Source of the DNA: an uncultured delta proteobacterium
GTDB taxonomy: Bacteria; Desulfobacterota; Desulfobacteria; Desulfobacterales; JAHEIW01
DNA: 64,000 nucleotides
Assembly (NCBI GenBank): GCA_963706575.1
Contig: CAVPNL010000006.1
Span: 926,519-990,518, forward strand
Direction: 5' to 3'
The position numbers were made by a program, and so were the translations under genes. This document shows, piece by piece, positions 23,453-31,330 of this stretch (positions within the stretch are counted from its first letter, which is position 1; each line of letters starts with the position of its first letter). The notes below the pieces were generated by a model that did no database searches, was not told the DNA's origin, and was given only the letters and a program-made list of their open reading frames with translations.

Positions 23453-25680
23453 ATGGCACCAACAGTCGCCTTGGCCGGCAACCCCAATTCCGGCAAAACC
23501 ACCCTTTTTAACGAACTCACCGGGTCGCGGCAGCATGTGGGCAATTATCCCGGCGTGACGGTCGAAAAAAAGAGGGCACTTATGTGCGGATCCATGACGG
23601 CTTCAGGCTGCATATCGTTGATCTTCCCGGCACCTATTCCCTCACGGCCTATTCCCTGGAAGAAGTGGTGACCCGTGATTTTCTGGTCAACCAGAAACCG
23701 GAAGTAGTCATCAACATCGTTGATGCCTCCAACCTGGAACGCAATCTATATCTGGCCATCCAGTTCCTTGAAATGGGTATTCCGATTTGCATCGCCCTCA
23801 ACATGATCGATGTGGCCAAAAAACGGGGGATTAAAGTCAATGCCCAAAAACTTTCATCTCTGCTGGGCGTACCCGTCACCCCAACCGTTGCCCGCTCCGG
23901 CCGGGGCAAAAAGGAACTCATGGACAGCGCCTCTCAGATTGCCCGGGAACCTCATCAATTGACGTCGCTTAAAATTTCTTACGGGGCGGATATCGACCCG
24001 GTGCTTTCTGAAATGGAAAAAGAAATAGCCGACCACCATTTTCTAACCGACACCTATCAGGCGCGCTGGATTGCCTTAAAATACTTAGAAAGCGATGAAC
24101 AGATTATTGGTAAAGGCCAAAAGGTCAATCCGGACCTTTCCAGCCGCCTGAGGGAAATGGTGCGCAAGGTCTCTCACCACCTGCTAAATACCCTGGATAC
24201 CTATCCGGAGGCCATGATTGCCGATCAGCGTTATGGGTATATCAAATCGATTCTGAAGCAAGGGGTCATCCACCACAAATACGACCGCAACCGGCTGTAC
24301 AGCTCGGATCGAATCGACAAAGTGGTGACCAATCGCTTTGTGGGCCCCTTAATCATGTTGGCGGTGATTGCCGGGCTGTATCATTTTACCTTTACTTACA
24401 GTAAATTACCGGTAGGATGGCTGGAAAGTTTTTTTGGCTGGCTGGGGTCAACCCTGTCGACCGTCTTACCGGAGGGCATGCTGAAATCGCTGATCGTATC
24501 GGGAATCATTGATGGTGTCGGCGGCGTCCTGGGTTTTGTGCCCCTCATCATGTTTATGTTTTTCGGCATTGCCATACTGGAGGATTCCGGCTATCTGGCC
24601 CGGGTGGCCTTTATGCTGGACCGCGTATTTCGTATATTTGGTTTGCACGGCAGCTCGGTGATGGCGTTTATTGTATCCGGCGGTATTGCCGGGGGCTGTG
24701 CCGTGCCGGGGGTGATGGCAACCCGCACCCTCAAGTCACCGCGTGAACGCCTGGCCACCCTGTTGACCGTGCCTTTTATGAACTGCGGTGCCAAATTGCC
24801 CGTATTTGCCCTGTTGATTGCGACGTTTTTTGCCAAATATGAGGCGGCCATTATGTTTTTGATTACGCTTGGTGCCTGGGCCGGTGCGCTGCTGGTTGCC
24901 AAGCTGTTGCGCGTCACGGTCATCAAAGGTGCGGCGACTCCCTTTGTGATGGAGCTTCCCCCCTACCGCATGCCGACCTTCAAAGGCCTGGCCATTCACA
25001 CCTGGGAGCGCACCTGGCAATATATCAAAAAAGCCGGGACGGTGATTTTGGGGCTGTCGATCGTACTGTGGGCCATGATGACCTTTCCCGGGCTGCCGGA
25101 TTCGAAGATTCAGGAGTTTGAAACATTGCGCCAGGCGGAAATAAATCTTGTGCCGGCCGGAGTTGCCGCTGAACTGGAAGCTGCCCGGGAAGGTACTGAG
25201 CTCTCCGGACCGGCGAGCAGCCTTAAAGAACGGATCCAACGCATCCATGCAGCCGAGGCTGAAGCCGGATTGCGAAATTCGATCGCCGGTCGTATTGGCG
25301 GCGCATTGGAGACCGTATCGAAATGGGCAGGTTTTGATTGGCGAACGAATATCGCGCTGGTGGGCGGATTTGCCGCCAAGGAAGTGGTGGTTTCAACTCT
25401 GGGTACGGCCTATTCTCTGGGAGAGTTGGATCTTGAAGAAACCGGCTCTTTGTCTGAAACCCTGGCCAGGGACCCAGGCTGGTCACCCTTGGTGGCGGTA
25501 GGTCTGATCGTTTTTACGATGTTCTATTCACCCTGTTTTGTCTCGGTCATCTGTATTTCAAGGGAATCGGGTTCCTGGAAATGGGGCGTGTTTGCCATGG
25601 CATTTAATACCGTGCTGGCCTTTGTTTTAGCGGTGCTCATCTTTCAAATTGGATCCGCCTTCGGAATTTTGGTGAAATAA
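23453..25680 (+). CDS. feoB: Ferrous iron transport protein B, split by a one-base indel at the A run 23565-23571
   Basis: GNPNSGKT and [12 protein letters not shown] in one frame; [13 protein letters not shown] and membrane domain in the -1 frame. Confidence 0.92.
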
Positions 25681-25681
25681 A

Positions 25682-25849
25682 ATGCAAACCCTTATCGTTA
25701 TTTTAATCGTTGCGATTGCAGCGGCGTTTCTGATTCGGAATTTTTTAAAAAAATTTAAACAGGAAGATGCCTGCAGTTGTGGGTGTGCGTCCTGTCCCAC
25801 GGACCCGGCTTCCTGTGAAGAAAATCCGGAAAATTCTCAGCTGCATTAA
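25682..25849 (+). CDS. FeoB-associated Cys-rich membrane protein (55 aa, not in ORF track)
   Basis: MQTLIVILIVAIAAAFLIRNFLKKFKQEDACSCGCASCP..., immediately after feoB. Confidence 0.85.
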   Translation: MQTLIVILIVAIAAAFLIRNFLKKFKQEDACSCGCASCPTDPASCEENPENSQLH

Positions 25850-25992
25850 GATCACCGGAAATACGGAAGTGTTAAATAAACCACAATGACACGAAGATCG
25901 CAAAGAAAGATGCCTTAAAAGTCTTTGTGAACTTTGTGCGTTCTGTTCTTTTTGTGGTGAAAAATATCTTTCAACTTTAAGGGAAAAATAAA

Positions 25993-26535
25993 ATGGGCCG
26001 CAAAGAACCGTTAAGCTCCAATATGGAAGACTATCTTGAAGCCATTTTCCACATTTCTCAAGAAAAACAGGCTGCCAGGGCCAAAGATATTGCCGATCGA
26101 GTGCAGGTAAACAAATCTTCTGTGACCGGTGCCCTGCGTTCGCTTTCCGAGAAAGGACTGGTGAACTATGCACCCTACGATATTATTACCCTGACGACGA
26201 AAGGCAAAAAGTTGGCGGTAGAAATCGTCAGAAGGCATGAAGCCCTTAAAGAATTTTTTATTAAAATCCTGTTAATCGATAAGGATGAGGCTGAAGAAAC
26301 CTCCTGCAAGGTCGAGCACGCGGTCTCAAAAAACATTATCGATCGGCTCATTCATTTTGTGGAGTTTATGGAAATATGCCCCCGCGGTGGGAAAGAATGG
26401 CTAAAAGGGTTTCGACGCCACTGCGAAAATGGTGATACCGCAAACCGTTGCGGTGATTACATAGTGGAATGTCTCGAAGATTTGAAAAAACGGCAACGCC
26501 AAATCGCATCCTCACACAATACCCAGACTCGCTGA
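25993..26535 (+). CDS. DtxR/MntR family metal-dependent regulator
   Basis: MEDYLEAI, SVTGAL..L, RRH, CKVEH. Confidence 0.93.
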   Translation: MGRKEPLSSNMEDYLEAIFHISQEKQAARAKDIADRVQVNKSSVTGALRSLSEKGLVNYAPYDIITLTTKGKKLAVEIVRRHEALKEFFIKILLIDKDEAEETSCKVEHAVSKNIIDRLIHFVEFMEICPRGGKEWLKGFRRHCENGDTANRCGDYIVECLEDLKKRQRQIASSHNTQTR

Positions 26536-26857: not shown

Positions 26858-27467
26858 TTTCAAAATACCCTTTCAATTTGTCCCTCAAAAATAAGCGTGC
26901 CCGGTGTAGCCTGACTTTCACATTCGCATCCGATAAATTCAAAATCTGTGCGGTTTCGGCCGTGCTGAACCCTTCAATGTCTCTTAATACAATCACCAGT
27001 CGGTATTTTTCGGGAAGCGTATAAATGGCTTCGTTGATCTTATCTAAAAGTTCATCGTTTAGCAGCTTATCCAGGGGCATCAGCGCCCATTTGGGAACCT
27101 GATCGGGAACTTCGGCTTCCTCCTGGGGGAAAAACTCATCCAGGGACAATTCCTGTTTCGGGGCGAATTTTGATTTTCGCCGCTTTTTAATGCACGTGCT
27201 GGCGGCCACCCGGTAGAGCCAGTTTTTAAATTTGGTTTCGTAGCGGAAATTCTTTAAATATCGAAAGACATTTAGAAAAGTTTCTTGAACCGTATCTTCG
27301 GCATCGGCCGTATTGCGACACATCCGCAGGCTGAAATTATACAGCTTTTGCTCGTACCGTTTGACAAGGTCCGAATAACGATCGAATTGGCCTGAATTGA
27401 TGGCCTGAATCAGCTCAAAATCTTTATCTTTTATCTTTTTGCGCTTCGCTGGCCTGGGTACTGTCAT
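26850..27467 (-). CDS. ECF sigma-70 factor
   Basis: DAEDTVQETFL, FKNWLYRVA, LPEKYR..IVLRDIEG, NVKVRLHRAR. Confidence 0.95.
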   Translation of the reverse strand: MTVPRPAKRKKIKDKDFELIQAINSGQFDRYSDLVKRYEQKLYNFSLRMCRNTADAEDTVQETFLNVFRYLKNFRYETKFKNWLYRVAASTCIKKRRKSKFAPKQELSLDEFFPQEEAEVPDQVPKWALMPLDKLLNDELLDKINEAIYTLPEKYRLVIVLRDIEGFSTAETAQILNLSDANVKVRLHRARLFLRDKLKGYFENE

Positions 27468-27588
27468 GGTTGCTTGTCACCTGACAAGAATTTTTCAGTC
27501 AGGTCGGAATGCCTAATTTTGGAAGAATATAGGCCTGCAGGAGAATCCAGATACCCGCAATGCCTAACATGATGATAAGCTCTTTCAT
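27424..27588 (-). CDS. Putative 54-aa membrane selenoprotein (U at codon 30; UxxxxC), not in ORF track
   Basis: AAGGAG-N7-ATG; MKELIIMLGIAGIWILLQAYILPKLGIPT-TGA-LKNSCQV...KDKR-TAA; SECIS-like hairpin 10 nt after the TGA. Confidence 0.7.
27473..27488 (-). promoter_or_regulatory. Putative bacterial SECIS hairpin
   Basis: CUUGUC-AGGU-GACAAG; G-containing apical loop resembling the CAGGU of the E. coli fdhF SECIS. Confidence 0.65.
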
Positions 27589-27616
27589 AATCATACTCCT
27601 TGTAATTAATAAGATC

Positions 27617-28093
27617 TCAGCGGGCATTTGTCCACTGTTTTTTAAAAATCAGGCAGTAGGCGGTTACTATCAAGAATGTCATCACCAGTCCCAGATGGGC
27701 TAAATCCAGGAAGATAATAAACCGCGGCCCGAACTGGTTTCCTGCCAGATTTCGGATCACCAGCAATATGCCCGATACCAGAATGCCAGCCAGAATTGCG
27801 CCCCGGACGTAACCGGTGGCGGTCAGGCGAAGGTGTTTTTTTTGCAGAATCAGGTAGTCAATGGCCATGTAGGCCACCAGCGCCAGGATTAAAATTGCGG
27901 CCAGGTAATGAATATAATGGGTCACAAAAAATTGCGCCAGCCAGCCAAGACCGGGGATATCGGCAATGTAGTAGCGTTTAAAAATGGGCATTTGGCCGAA
28001 ACCGGTGAGGGTTAATAAAAAGACTGTTAACAAATAAACATAGCGAACGGTACGGTTGGGTACCTTTGATATAGCGGTTTGTTGCACTTTCAT
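27617..28093 (-). CDS. Four-TM membrane partner of Fe-S protein (cytochrome b-like)
   Basis: TGFGQMPIFKRYYIADIPGLGWL; His residues in TM segments; follows the Fe-S gene. Confidence 0.75.
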   Translation of the reverse strand: MKVQQTAISKVPNRTVRYVYLLTVFLLTLTGFGQMPIFKRYYIADIPGLGWLAQFFVTHYIHYLAAILILALVAYMAIDYLILQKKHLRLTATGYVRGAILAGILVSGILLVIRNLAGNQFGPRFIIFLDLAHLGLVMTFLIVTAYCLIFKKQWTNAR

Positions 28094-30444: not shown

Positions 30445-30741
30445 ATGGAGACATCAATGAATAAAACGGAAGAACAGGTTTTAGAGGACAAAATTGAGAA
30501 TCTAATTGCAATTGGCGCTGCCACGGCAGCAAATTGTATTCCCTGCTTTGAACACCTTTATGAAAAAGCCATCAATTCTGGTATCACATTAGCAGAGATT
30601 AAACGGGCTTCTGATATTGCCGGATTGGTTAAAAAAGGCGCTCATATTGCGCTTACAAACAGCGTTAATGAACTCATCGGAATAGAAGAAACCGATAACA
30701 TGCCGTGCGACCAGACAGCGAACAAATCTTGTTGCAGCTAA
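30445..30741 (+). CDS. Carboxymuconolactone decarboxylase/AhpD-like protein with C-terminal CC
   Basis: LIAIGAATAANCIPCFEH; ends KSCCS. Confidence 0.8.
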   Translation: METSMNKTEEQVLEDKIENLIAIGAATAANCIPCFEHLYEKAINSGITLAEIKRASDIAGLVKKGAHIALTNSVNELIGIEETDNMPCDQTANKSCCS

Positions 30742-30778
30742 TTACGAACCTTGTAGAATAAAAATAAAGAACAGAAAA

Positions 30779-31330
30779 ATGGATTATTGGGATATATATC
30801 ACAATTACTATGAACGCGTAAAAAGGTTCATTTTTACGCTTGTTAAAGATCAATGGGTGGCCGATGATTTAATCCAGGAGACTTTCATCAAGGTACAAAA
30901 AAACCTGAACCAGTTGAAAGAAGAAGCCAAGCTTTCTTCTTGGATTTTTAAAATTGCCTACAACCTTTGTCAGGATCACTTTCGACAAGTCAGCCAATCA
31001 TCTAAAAGAGAACGCGTTCCTAGCGAAGAAAGGCAATTTCTAACAGAACCGCTATTCCAAAAAGAATTTGAGCAACATCAAATGGGAGAATGCGTCCAAG
31101 ACAAAATCAGATTATTGCCGGAATCATATCAGACCGTGCTGGTTCTTTTTGATCTGATGGAATTCAGCCATCAGGAAATCGCCGAGATTCTCGATATATC
31201 TGTTGAGAATGTCAAGGTTAGATTACACCGCGCCCGCAAGAAATTAAAAATAATCCTGGAAAAAGAATGCAGATTCGAAGTCGACGAACGAAATGTCTTT
31301 ATTTGCGATCCTGTCTCAAGCAAAAACTAG
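30779..31330 (+). CDS. ECF sigma-70 factor with Cys-containing C-terminal tail
   Basis: ADDLIQETF, SSWIFKIA.N, NVKVRLHRAR, CRFEVDERNVFIC. Confidence 0.92.
   Translation: MDYWDIYHNYYERVKRFIFTLVKDQWVADDLIQETFIKVQKNLNQLKEEAKLSSWIFKIAYNLCQDHFRQVSQSSKRERVPSEERQFLTEPLFQKEFEQHQMGECVQDKIRLLPESYQTVLVLFDLMEFSHQEIAEILDISVENVKVRLHRARKKLKIILEKECRFEVDERNVFICDPVSSKN

Follow-up and report, generated by a model that had tools for sequence, protein, structure and literature searches.

A predicted small selenoprotein gene with its SECIS hairpin directly before an overlapping ECF sigma factor gene in Desulfobacterales: a candidate for selenium-dependent sigma control

Organization of the locus

The stretch of DNA investigated here (hereafter the window) comprises 64,000 nucleotides (nt) from the genome of an uncultured delta proteobacterium of the order Desulfobacterales (GenBank assembly GCA_963706575.1, contig CAVPNL010000006.1, positions 926,519 to 990,518), and carries on its minus strand a micro open reading frame (micro-ORF) with an in-frame UGA codon, a hairpin following this codon, and genes encoding an extracytoplasmic function (ECF) sigma factor and a zinc-associated anti-sigma (ZAS) factor (Table 1). 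Comparative genome analysis indicates that the micro-ORF encodes a selenoprotein with selenocysteine (Sec) at the UGA and that the hairpin is its selenocysteine insertion sequence (SECIS). The favoured reading of the locus, which on the sequence evidence is probable while leaving considerable room for doubt, is that this selenoprotein gene leads the sigma/anti-sigma unit, that synthesis of the sigma factor is coupled to translation of the micro-ORF, and that its yield depends on Sec decoding. This reading builds on a SECIS, a selenoprotein, a conserved geometry and frame relation of the two genes, a weak Shine-Dalgarno (SD) sequence of the sigma gene and an upstream motif specific to the linked loci, all of which are observed.

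The part of the micro-ORF before the UGA (MKELIIMLGIAGIWILLQAYILPKLGIPT, 29 residues) consists mostly of one hydrophobic helix. The sigma ATG at 27467 lies 5 nt 3' of the hairpin and 31 nt 3' of the UGA, inside the read-through tail of the micro-ORF, which extends over 44 nt at the start of the sigma gene in a different frame, and no other ATG, GTG or TTG occurs in the interval from an in-frame TGA, 12 nt 5' of it, to the conserved part of sigma. The coordinates of the original prediction, including the 44-nt overlap and the placement of an SD-like AGGUGA hexamer in the loop and 3' arm of the hairpin, are all correct on the minus strand. Regarding the two regulatory genes, the sigma factor has sigma-70 regions 2 and 4 only and is adjoined by a zf-HC2 protein of the H-x3-C-x2-C type (motif HIKDCVPC in the translation), the match of which to the NCBIfam model antisig_RsrA (7e-08, 32.5 bits) is under the model cut-off of 62.5 bits.

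Table 1. Features of the micro-ORF/sigma/anti-sigma locus, in positions of the window
Feature	Position	Strand	Description
Micro-ORF	27588..27424	-	Predicted 54-aa single-helix selenoprotein: 29 aa, Sec, 24 aa, TAA stop at 27426..27424
Sec codon UGA	27501..27499	-	In-frame in the micro-ORF, sole in-frame TGA
Predicted bacterial SECIS upper stem-loop CUUGUC-AGGU-GACAAG	27488..27473	-	6-bp stem, AGGU loop; starts 10 nt 3' of the UGA
AGGUGA, SD-like hexamer	27482..27477	-	Loop and first two bases of the 3' arm; ends 9 nt 5' of the sigma ATG
ECF sigma gene, 205 aa	27467..26850	-	Pfam Sigma70_r2 5e-16, Sigma70_r4_2 7.3e-17; NCBIfam sigma70-ECF 108.6 bits (cut-off 42.9)
ZAS-type (zf-HC2, RsrA-like) anti-sigma gene, 90 aa	26863..26591	-	Overlaps the sigma stop; Pfam zf-HC2 2.4e-08
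Micro-ORF SD sequence AAGGAG	27601..27596	-	7 nt 5' of the micro-ORF ATG
Promoter-like element	27643..27606	-	A-tract, TGGACA(A) at 27634..27628, CTTAT/TATTAA at 27613..27606; inside the 3' end of the membrane-protein gene
Multi-helix membrane protein gene, 158 aa	28093..27617	-	Without known family; upstream of the micro-ORF
Tat-exported HybA/HmcB-like 4Fe-4S protein gene, 320 aa	29076..28114	-	Fer4 domains and TAT signal; HmcB 9.8e-39, HybA 5.1e-38, both under cut-offs

The micro-ORF belongs to a family of small selenoproteins

The genome has genes for Sec decoding, including SelB (376.5 bits; cut-off 242.25) and tRNA-Sec (75.2 bits; gathering score 47). A six-frame search reading through stops in the window's genome and 100 relatives gave 88 best rows (E <= 2.1e-6; 84 of 101 genomes), each with exactly one TGA and with a match extending past it to query residue 39-54; an additional terminal TAA was present in three of these rows. 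Ninety loci were fetched, and after removal of four weak false matches (L132-L135) and three loci cut by contig ends (L110, L126, L136) a TGA was found at the aligned Sec position in all 83 usable loci, within the context LLQxYILPKLG[IV]ST-U-[LM]xx[SA]CQ[VL]T, and likewise in 20 of 20 loci from other orders. Members of the family are single-helix proteins of about 45-65 aa with a tail of 14-36 aa after Sec, and share the motif LP[KR][LM]G-x-x-T-U-x4-C, in which Cys can replace U; M1, Q18, P23, G26, T29, U30, C35 and Q36 are invariant in 35 aligned members.

Regarding distribution, the family was detected in 114 of 301 genomes (80 of 201 genera) in a sample of the phylum, with one TGA in every listed match, and a pattern search of one genome per species returned at least 565 relatives, which besides Desulfobacterota come from genomes or bins of Acidobacteriota, Planctomycetota, Obscuribacterales/Melainabacteria-type, Myxococcales-type, Bacteroidota, Chloroflexota and others. 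Among the best 80 of the at least 565 pattern matches, U occupies the Sec position in 75 and Cys in 5; some loci of this wide set may duplicate loci of the genome sample. A true Cys codon at the Sec position was found in 10 distinct loci.

Public protein databases hold only truncations of 29 aa or 42 aa ('hypothetical protein' or unnamed) and seven readings with TGA as W, the Cys forms having come from the pattern search. The Sec form, read with C, had no NCBIfam match at E <= 1 and a sole Pfam match at chance level (DMAC1_Dmo2, 0.064), the Cys forms matched no Pfam or NCBIfam family, and a natural Cys homologue retrieved from the ESM Atlas only an unnamed 'hypothetical protein' cluster (0.88). 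The motif is absent from the 119 prokaryotic selenoprotein families in Table 1 of a 2026 review (PMC13188914); closest in that table is the LULAxC motif (TsoA, NF045695), in which U and C are spaced differently, and the TsoA model yielded no match. The family thus appears unannotated in the databases and models searched. With an in-frame UGA, conservation of the protein on both sides of it and Cys homologues aligned at the UGA, the micro-ORF is, on comparative grounds, a real gene for a small, single-helix membrane selenoprotein occurring in many phyla. One locus, L089, has two tandem copies of the micro-selenoprotein gene about 80 nt apart, each with its own TGA.

The hairpin behind the UGA is a SECIS by comparative evidence

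The bacterial SECIS (bSECIS) model was taken from the legend of Fig. 2A of the review (PMC13188914), according to which the apical loop has 3-9 nt, the upper stem 4-16 bp, the minimum free energy is -7.5 kcal/mol or lower, and loop position 1 or 2 is a G, with G or U as the usual next base. Compared with the model in this legend, the hairpin of the window has a 4-nt loop, a 6-bp stem, a G at position 2 of A-G-G-U with G as the next base, and a UGA-to-loop spacing of 16 nt (+3..+18), the lower bound of the bSECIS range; regarding the threshold of -7.5, the energy is -6.1 kcal/mol for the bare hairpin and -14.6 for a 71-nt fold in which a lower stem takes in the UGA region. The significance of the hairpin derives from comparison across loci, not from the single-sequence fold, which is unremarkable (71-nt z = -0.67; 50 of 200 shuffles fold equally well).

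In the alignment of 83 loci, the stem cells of an 8-bp model are 86.2% paired; sliding the 3' partner lowers this to 33.5-71.2%. The covariation score (0.271 vs 0.168 +/- 0.011 in shuffles) and the number of cells changed on both sides (60 vs 22.4 +/- 9.8) were each reached by 0 of 500 shuffles, in a test that relatedness of the loci can inflate. Of the five covariation measures two did not rise above shuffles: 204 of 500 attained the 4 both-side-changed pairs, and 291 of 500 the 10 further pair types. In the informative stem pairs, a third codon position at which changes are synonymous is matched with the first base of a codon farther on, as in pair 24-37 between a Ser/Ala codon and the one that follows Thr (38 rows with UA, 37 with CG) and in pair 27-34 between Cys TGT/TGC and ACA/GCA (Thr/Ala; UA in 61 rows, CG in 12), and pairing of this kind is not predicted by protein selection alone.

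When a 4-nt loop is required, 75 of 83 loci have a stem of 5 bp or more, either perfect or with G-U pairs; the loop is AGGU in 60 of the 83 and AGUU in 13, with GGUC and GGUU in other phyla. In the 20 loci of other orders the residues after C35 differ (CAPEDRE, CPAPDRK, CPVEDKK, others), and a hairpin of another sequence occupies the corresponding place. A stem of 5 bp or more that begins at +11..+20 was found in 67 of 75 Sec loci of the wide set versus 3 of 10 Cys loci, and these three Cys loci, with a strong hairpin at +13 to +16 (L239 with a 3-nt GUC loop, L243 and L245 with 4-nt GGUC/GGUU loops), look like carriers of a fossil SECIS from a recent Sec-to-Cys change. Searches with Rfam gave no match at gathering thresholds in the whole window, and three chance-level matches in 27300..27700 at E <= 10. 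The putative SECIS of the original prediction is upheld by the stem covariation, by agreement with the bSECIS rules for loop, stem, G and spacing, and by the hairpin being mostly gone in Cys variants, and from these comparisons the hairpin is taken to be the genuine SECIS of the micro-ORF selenoprotein.

The same region has a further complementarity on the minus strand, between ACCUGAC spanning the Sec codon (27495..27504) and GUCAGGU (27479..27485; end of the 5' arm plus loop). This 7-bp competing helix is the minimum-energy fold in about a dozen loci, and could form only when the UGA is free of ribosomes.

Linkage to the sigma/anti-sigma pair

Searches by tblastn with the window's proteins located an ECF sigma gene and a ZAS anti-sigma gene directly downstream of the micro-ORF in 47 of the 83 loci, representing 25 of 61 families of the order, with 23 of the 47 belonging to the window's own family. 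The sigma ATG is offset from the UGA by +34 in 28 loci (6 families), by +40 in 13 loci (13 families), by +37 in two loci, and by +43, +46 and +53 in one locus each, while L082 has no canonical start. Among the assigned sigma starts, 45 of 46 are in the +1 frame relative to the UGA, so that the spacer has changed only in steps of three, as expected if it is translated. The sigma ATG stands 6-25 nt behind the SECIS in the relatives, and the read-through stop 29-62 nt 3' of the sigma ATG in 45 loci, the other case being an ATGA overlap; the placement of the sigma start right behind the hairpin and inside the read-through tail, first noted in the window, is therefore true of 25 families of the order. 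The overlap is limited to the poorly conserved sigma N-terminus and the variable selenoprotein tail, and the tail has an equal length with and without sigma (median 24 vs 23.5 aa), so that the sigma start lies under a tail of normal length.

Outside the order the sigma-linked arrangement was found in 2 of 20 loci, and in the wide set in 4 of 75 Sec loci, all in Desulfobacterales-type records. Desulfoluna limicola ASN36 (L274), which is cultured and has a complete genome, shows the hairpin CCUGCC-AGGU-GGCAGG, the sigma ATG at +40 and the read-through stop at +66. The 10 Cys loci have no sigma, anti-sigma, hybA or membrane gene within 1.2 kb, and so offer no spacing to compare. A Pfam search of 89 ORFs flanking the sigma-less loci revealed no common partner (MobB 4, ArsR-type 2, thioredoxin 2, plus DsrE, rhodanese and HD). 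In the sigma-less loci L148 and L156 the end of a gene for an ArsR-type regulator overlaps the micro-ORF start by 1 nt, as does a small ORF in L117 and L146, and the ArsR-overlapped loci may be another regulator-linked context of the family.

Ribosome-binding sites of the micro-ORF and the sigma gene

Regarding translation initiation, the micro-ORF start has a median anti-SD energy of -8.1 kcal/mol, with the SD sequence 4-8 nt away in 75 or more of the 83 loci. None of the 46 sigma starts has a good SD sequence (median anti-SD energy -3.8 kcal/mol), and their best sites are placed inside the hairpin or almost at the ATG (0-2 nt). In the window, CAGGUG within the hairpin pairs best with the anti-SD over the 22 nt preceding the sigma start, and does so weakly (-3.8 kcal/mol, spacer 10). 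The sigma gene has the features of a coupled cistron, with a start that has no adequate SD sequence and lies inside or overlapping the upstream cistron, and the absence of an adequate SD sequence from 46 of 46 loci makes dependence on ribosomes of the micro-ORF likely.

The original prediction assigned the role of sigma SD sequence to AGGUGA, and this hexamer is indeed the only SD-like one before the ATG; its proposed role did not withstand comparison. AGGUGA occurs in 36 of the 47 loci with sigma and likewise in 15 of the 36 without it, its distance to the ATG is a workable 9-10 nt only in the +34 arrangement and 14-16 nt in the +40 arrangement, which is the commonest by family (13 of 25 sigma-linked families), and it is replaced by AGUUGA in five sigma-linked families. 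The likeness to an SD sequence is due to the SECIS loop rule (G, then G or U) together with the encoded codons Q-V-T, and AGGUGA is probably not a selected sigma SD sequence; judged from these comparisons it would be a lineage-specific by-product, not a conserved principle.

Upstream motif and transcription unit

About 46 nt 5' of the micro-ORF ATG there is a motif consisting of an A-tract, TGGACA(A), a spacer of about 15-17 nt and C[GT]TAT. The regular expression NGGACN-N15-18-[CT][GTA]TA, applied within 90 nt of the micro-ORF start, matched 32 of 47 sigma-linked versus 0 of 36 sigma-less loci, where chance would be expected to give about one match per group (an estimate). The motif is kept in loci without the membrane gene, and the element fails a scan for the canonical sigma-70 consensus. 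We infer from this distribution an ECF-like promoter of the micro-ORF/sigma/anti-sigma unit, which is possibly a target of the sigma factor itself.

The gene for the 158-aa membrane protein is directly upstream of the micro-ORF in 34 of 83 loci; by context, 28 loci have the membrane gene and sigma, 19 sigma only, 6 the membrane gene only and 30 neither. In 34 of 83 loci the micro-ORF is preceded by genes for a HybA/HmcB-like 4Fe-4S protein and the membrane protein, with no catalytic subunit adjoining, and the small selenoprotein may be the third subunit of such a HybA/HmcB-like membrane module.

Proposed mechanism and alternative explanations

According to the favoured reading, the micro-ORF would be the leading cistron of a micro-ORF/ECF sigma/ZAS unit in Desulfobacterales-type genomes, apparently with its own ECF-like promoter, and its ribosome-binding site, the sole strong one of the unit, would load the ribosomes that reach the sigma gene. 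Two courses would be open to such a ribosome: termination at the UGA, which leaves 31 nt to the sigma ATG and an intact hairpin in that interval, or Sec insertion, after which it would melt the stem, pass over the sigma ATG in a different frame and reach its stop 41 nt farther on. Given the footprint sizes of the ribosome and the 30S subunit, the space of a 30S subunit at 27467 would, from geometry, be encroached on by a ribosome paused at the UGA and likewise by hairpin-bound SelB. Because of the two ribosome outcomes, sigma yield should depend on Sec-decoding capacity, the effect being expected at translation initiation, with polarity possible as a secondary effect. Translation of the sigma gene by coupling to ribosomes from the micro-ORF is likely, and selenium gating of sigma, in either direction, is plausible.

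A further-reaching version, which is tentative and rather doubtful, sees the Sec codon and SECIS as a built-in gauge of selenium or Sec-tRNA in an autoregulated sigma operon, where the share of read-through would set sigma and anti-sigma levels and the selenoprotein may be a redox sensor to the ZAS anti-sigma. If this were true, a thiol/selenol-stress sigma regulon would be tuned to the capacity to make selenoproteins, and the locus would provide the first sigma factor under Sec-recoding control and the first natural working SECIS doubling as the translational operator of the next gene.

Several observations weigh against selenium-dependent coupling. The UGA and SECIS are kept in 36 of 83 loci without any sigma, which argues that Sec serves the protein's own function and not primarily regulation. 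Three loci labelled Acidobacteriota (L268, L271, L320) have an ECF sigma/ZAS pair at a distance of about 0.65-0.75 kb, encoded on the opposite strand; it is transcribed divergently from a DUF302 gene, behind which the micro-selenoprotein gene follows, and its sigma is about 33% identical to that of the window. Association is thus possible without translational coupling, which speaks for functional partnership as the cause of the linkage. Counts over the 47 sigma-linked loci overstate independence, since these loci are related to each other, and the conservation of frame and spacing could be inherited rather than selected. The upstream motif is missing by the regular expression in 15 of the 47, and a genome-wide motif scan shows no clear regulon (strict form, 4 distinct sites vs 0 in the reversed control; looser forms, 27 vs 51 and 90 vs 258). 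Initiation without an SD sequence, on the A-rich stretch before the sigma ATG, is possible. Regarding transcripts, four RNA runs gave short contigs of relatives (90-99% identity), of which, among the pieces listed, none spans the sigma start with at least 31 nt on each side; DNA carry-over is possible in these runs, which show neither transcript ends nor co-transcription.

Among the alternatives, ordinary operon compaction deserves the most attention, and is possible while being improbable on balance. It holds that the SECIS is real, that its closeness to sigma is neutral, following from a short gene with Sec near the C-terminus, and that sigma initiates alone (by a weak SD sequence, the A-rich stretch or standby binding) and is practically insensitive to selenium. 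The selenoprotein does occur with UGA and SECIS in the sigma-less loci and in many phyla, AGGUGA is not specific to sigma-linked loci, A-rich stretches precede many sigma ATGs, and an overlap that touches only the poorly conserved sigma N-terminus and the variable tail would cost little. Compaction by itself sits poorly with a well-spaced SD sequence in 0 of 46 loci, with an overlap of 29-62 nt kept in 25 families and a frame relation shared by 45 of 46 starts, and with the position of the motif specific to sigma-linked loci, which is upstream of the micro-ORF and not of sigma. The Escherichia coli selAB leader, in which SelB is reported to repress translation (10.64898/2026.03.03.709296), offers a precedent for a second alternative, an occlusion whereby SelB-GTP-Sec-tRNA on the SECIS would block the 30S subunit, so that plentiful charged tRNA-Sec would repress sigma and a shortage of selenium would relieve it. 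The hairpin ends close enough to the sigma ATG for this (5 nt before it here, 6-25 nt in relatives), but this is a presumably working SECIS behind a cistron predicted to be well translated, from which elongating ribosomes would strip SelB repeatedly, and the weak SD sequence suggests little free 30S initiation to repress; we regard such occlusion as unlikely.

Two further explanations concern the hairpin itself. By folding alone, a two-state RNA switch could be imagined in which the 5' arm and loop of the SECIS pair with the sigma start (ACC-AUGACAG) and hide the AUG unless the hairpin forms, and in the window this alternative helix is indeed the minimum-energy fold of +3..+50 (-9.5 vs -6.1 kcal/mol for the bare hairpin), with a probability of 0.18 that the AUG is paired to the 5' arm or loop, as against 0.03 in controls. 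Across loci the median of this probability falls to 0.02 in the 28 loci at +34 and 0.00 in the 13 at +40, and it is at least 0.18 in only 7 of 46, which makes the switch very improbable. As a general mechanism, a conserved AUG-sequestering switch was rejected, the helix of the window not being conserved across the 46 loci. Finally, the hairpin might not be a SECIS, with the micro-ORF ending at the UGA as a 29-aa peptide and the palindrome acting as a terminator or protein operator. Databases do list 29-aa and 42-aa forms as hypothetical proteins, a consensus scan calls the palindrome terminator-like on the plus strand, and Rfam gives no match; set against conservation of the protein past the UGA in every lineage, Cys codons at the UGA position in 10 loci, and covariation of a stem in which one side changes synonymously and the other non-synonymously, this explanation is scarcely credible. 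An intrinsic terminator was also considered and rejected, as no plus-strand gene ends at the palindrome, the T-run is not conserved, and no U-run follows the hairpin on the minus strand.

Comparison with known systems

The hairpin resembles bSECIS elements, of which those of the E. coli formate dehydrogenase genes are the prototype, in being a stem-loop in the coding region right after the Sec-UGA, with a small G-bearing loop, a distance of 16 nt, and SelB and tRNA-Sec genes in the genome. It differs in belonging to a gene family outside the inventory in Table 1 of the 2026 review, in having no Rfam model match and in a bare hairpin weaker than the -7.5 threshold of the review's figure legend, and it is unusual in ending 5 nt before the start codon of the next gene. 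In the E. coli selAB 5'-untranslated region, a SECIS-like hairpin is reported to lie 3 nt from the SD sequence, and binding of SelB to repress translation (10.64898/2026.03.03.709296). Common to this account and the present locus is a hairpin recognisable by SelB (here by prediction) near a translation start, here 5 nt from the ATG and overlapping the SD-like hexamer. The hairpin adjoins the downstream start in both, but the selAB element, on that description, is a non-decoding mimic in an untranslated leader that regulates the Sec machinery, whereas here a presumably working SECIS with a conserved Sec codon stands in a translated cistron, and the downstream gene encodes a sigma factor. In Treponema primitia, selenium is reported to act on fdhF-Sec by controlling expression 3' of its Sec codon through translation-coupled transcription (PMC3892789). 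The likeness is that sequence 3' of a Sec-UGA and SECIS is expressed according to read-through; as described there, the affected part is the 3' part of the same gene and the step is transcription elongation, whereas here it is a separate overlapping cistron with its start 31 nt after the UGA.

In the classical coupling of overlapping cistrons, known from RNA phages and polycistronic operons, starts masked by hairpins are opened by upstream ribosomes. The sigma gene shares with these a start without a good SD sequence, within reach of upstream ribosomes and at a hairpin, in a co-directional operon; what differs is that there are two possible upstream stops (the UGA or the read-through stop), with the choice set by recoding that depends on a trace element. 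The regulators themselves are reminiscent of SigR-RsrA thiol-stress modules, with an ECF sigma followed by a small soluble zf-HC2 anti-sigma, overlapping stop and start, and an autoregulatory-looking upstream motif, but here a selenoprotein cistron lies in front of and overlaps sigma, and the RsrA score is under the cut-off; the -35/-10-like motif (TGGACAA ... CGTAT/CTTAT) also differs from the SigR consensus. In families with Sec near the C-terminus, such as UXX-star and KCU-star, the short stretch after Sec pushes the SECIS toward or beyond the end of the gene, toward the next gene. The micro-ORF family has no sequence relation to them (no NCBIfam match at E <= 1) and differs in its 14-36 aa tail and U-x4-C. 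Both UXX-star and KCU-star are among the selenoprotein families named in Table 1 of PMC13188914.

Full-text searches within a limited collection of papers found nothing connecting a selenoprotein or SECIS with a sigma or anti-sigma factor. The analysis reveals a short selenoprotein gene that is missing from annotation and present at no fewer than 565 places in one-genome-per-species collections, so that selenoproteome counts for these phyla are too low, and in Desulfobacterales its overlap with an ECF sigma/ZAS pair is a concrete, testable candidate for selenium-dependent sigma control. The system is small, at about 250 nt from promoter to sigma start, and its occurrence in the cultured Desulfoluna limicola ASN36 makes reporter work feasible.

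Neighbouring genes

Beside the operon, on the opposite strand (23584..26535, plus), are genes encoding FeoB, a FeoB-associated Cys-rich small membrane protein and a DtxR-type iron-dependent repressor. A second ECF-type sigma gene (183 aa) is located at 30445..31330 on the plus strand and is preceded by a gene for a 98-aa CMD/AhpD-like protein with a C-x-x-C motif; CMD-like and AhpD-like proteins in a CxxU form are known selenoprotein families according to Table 1 of PMC13188914.

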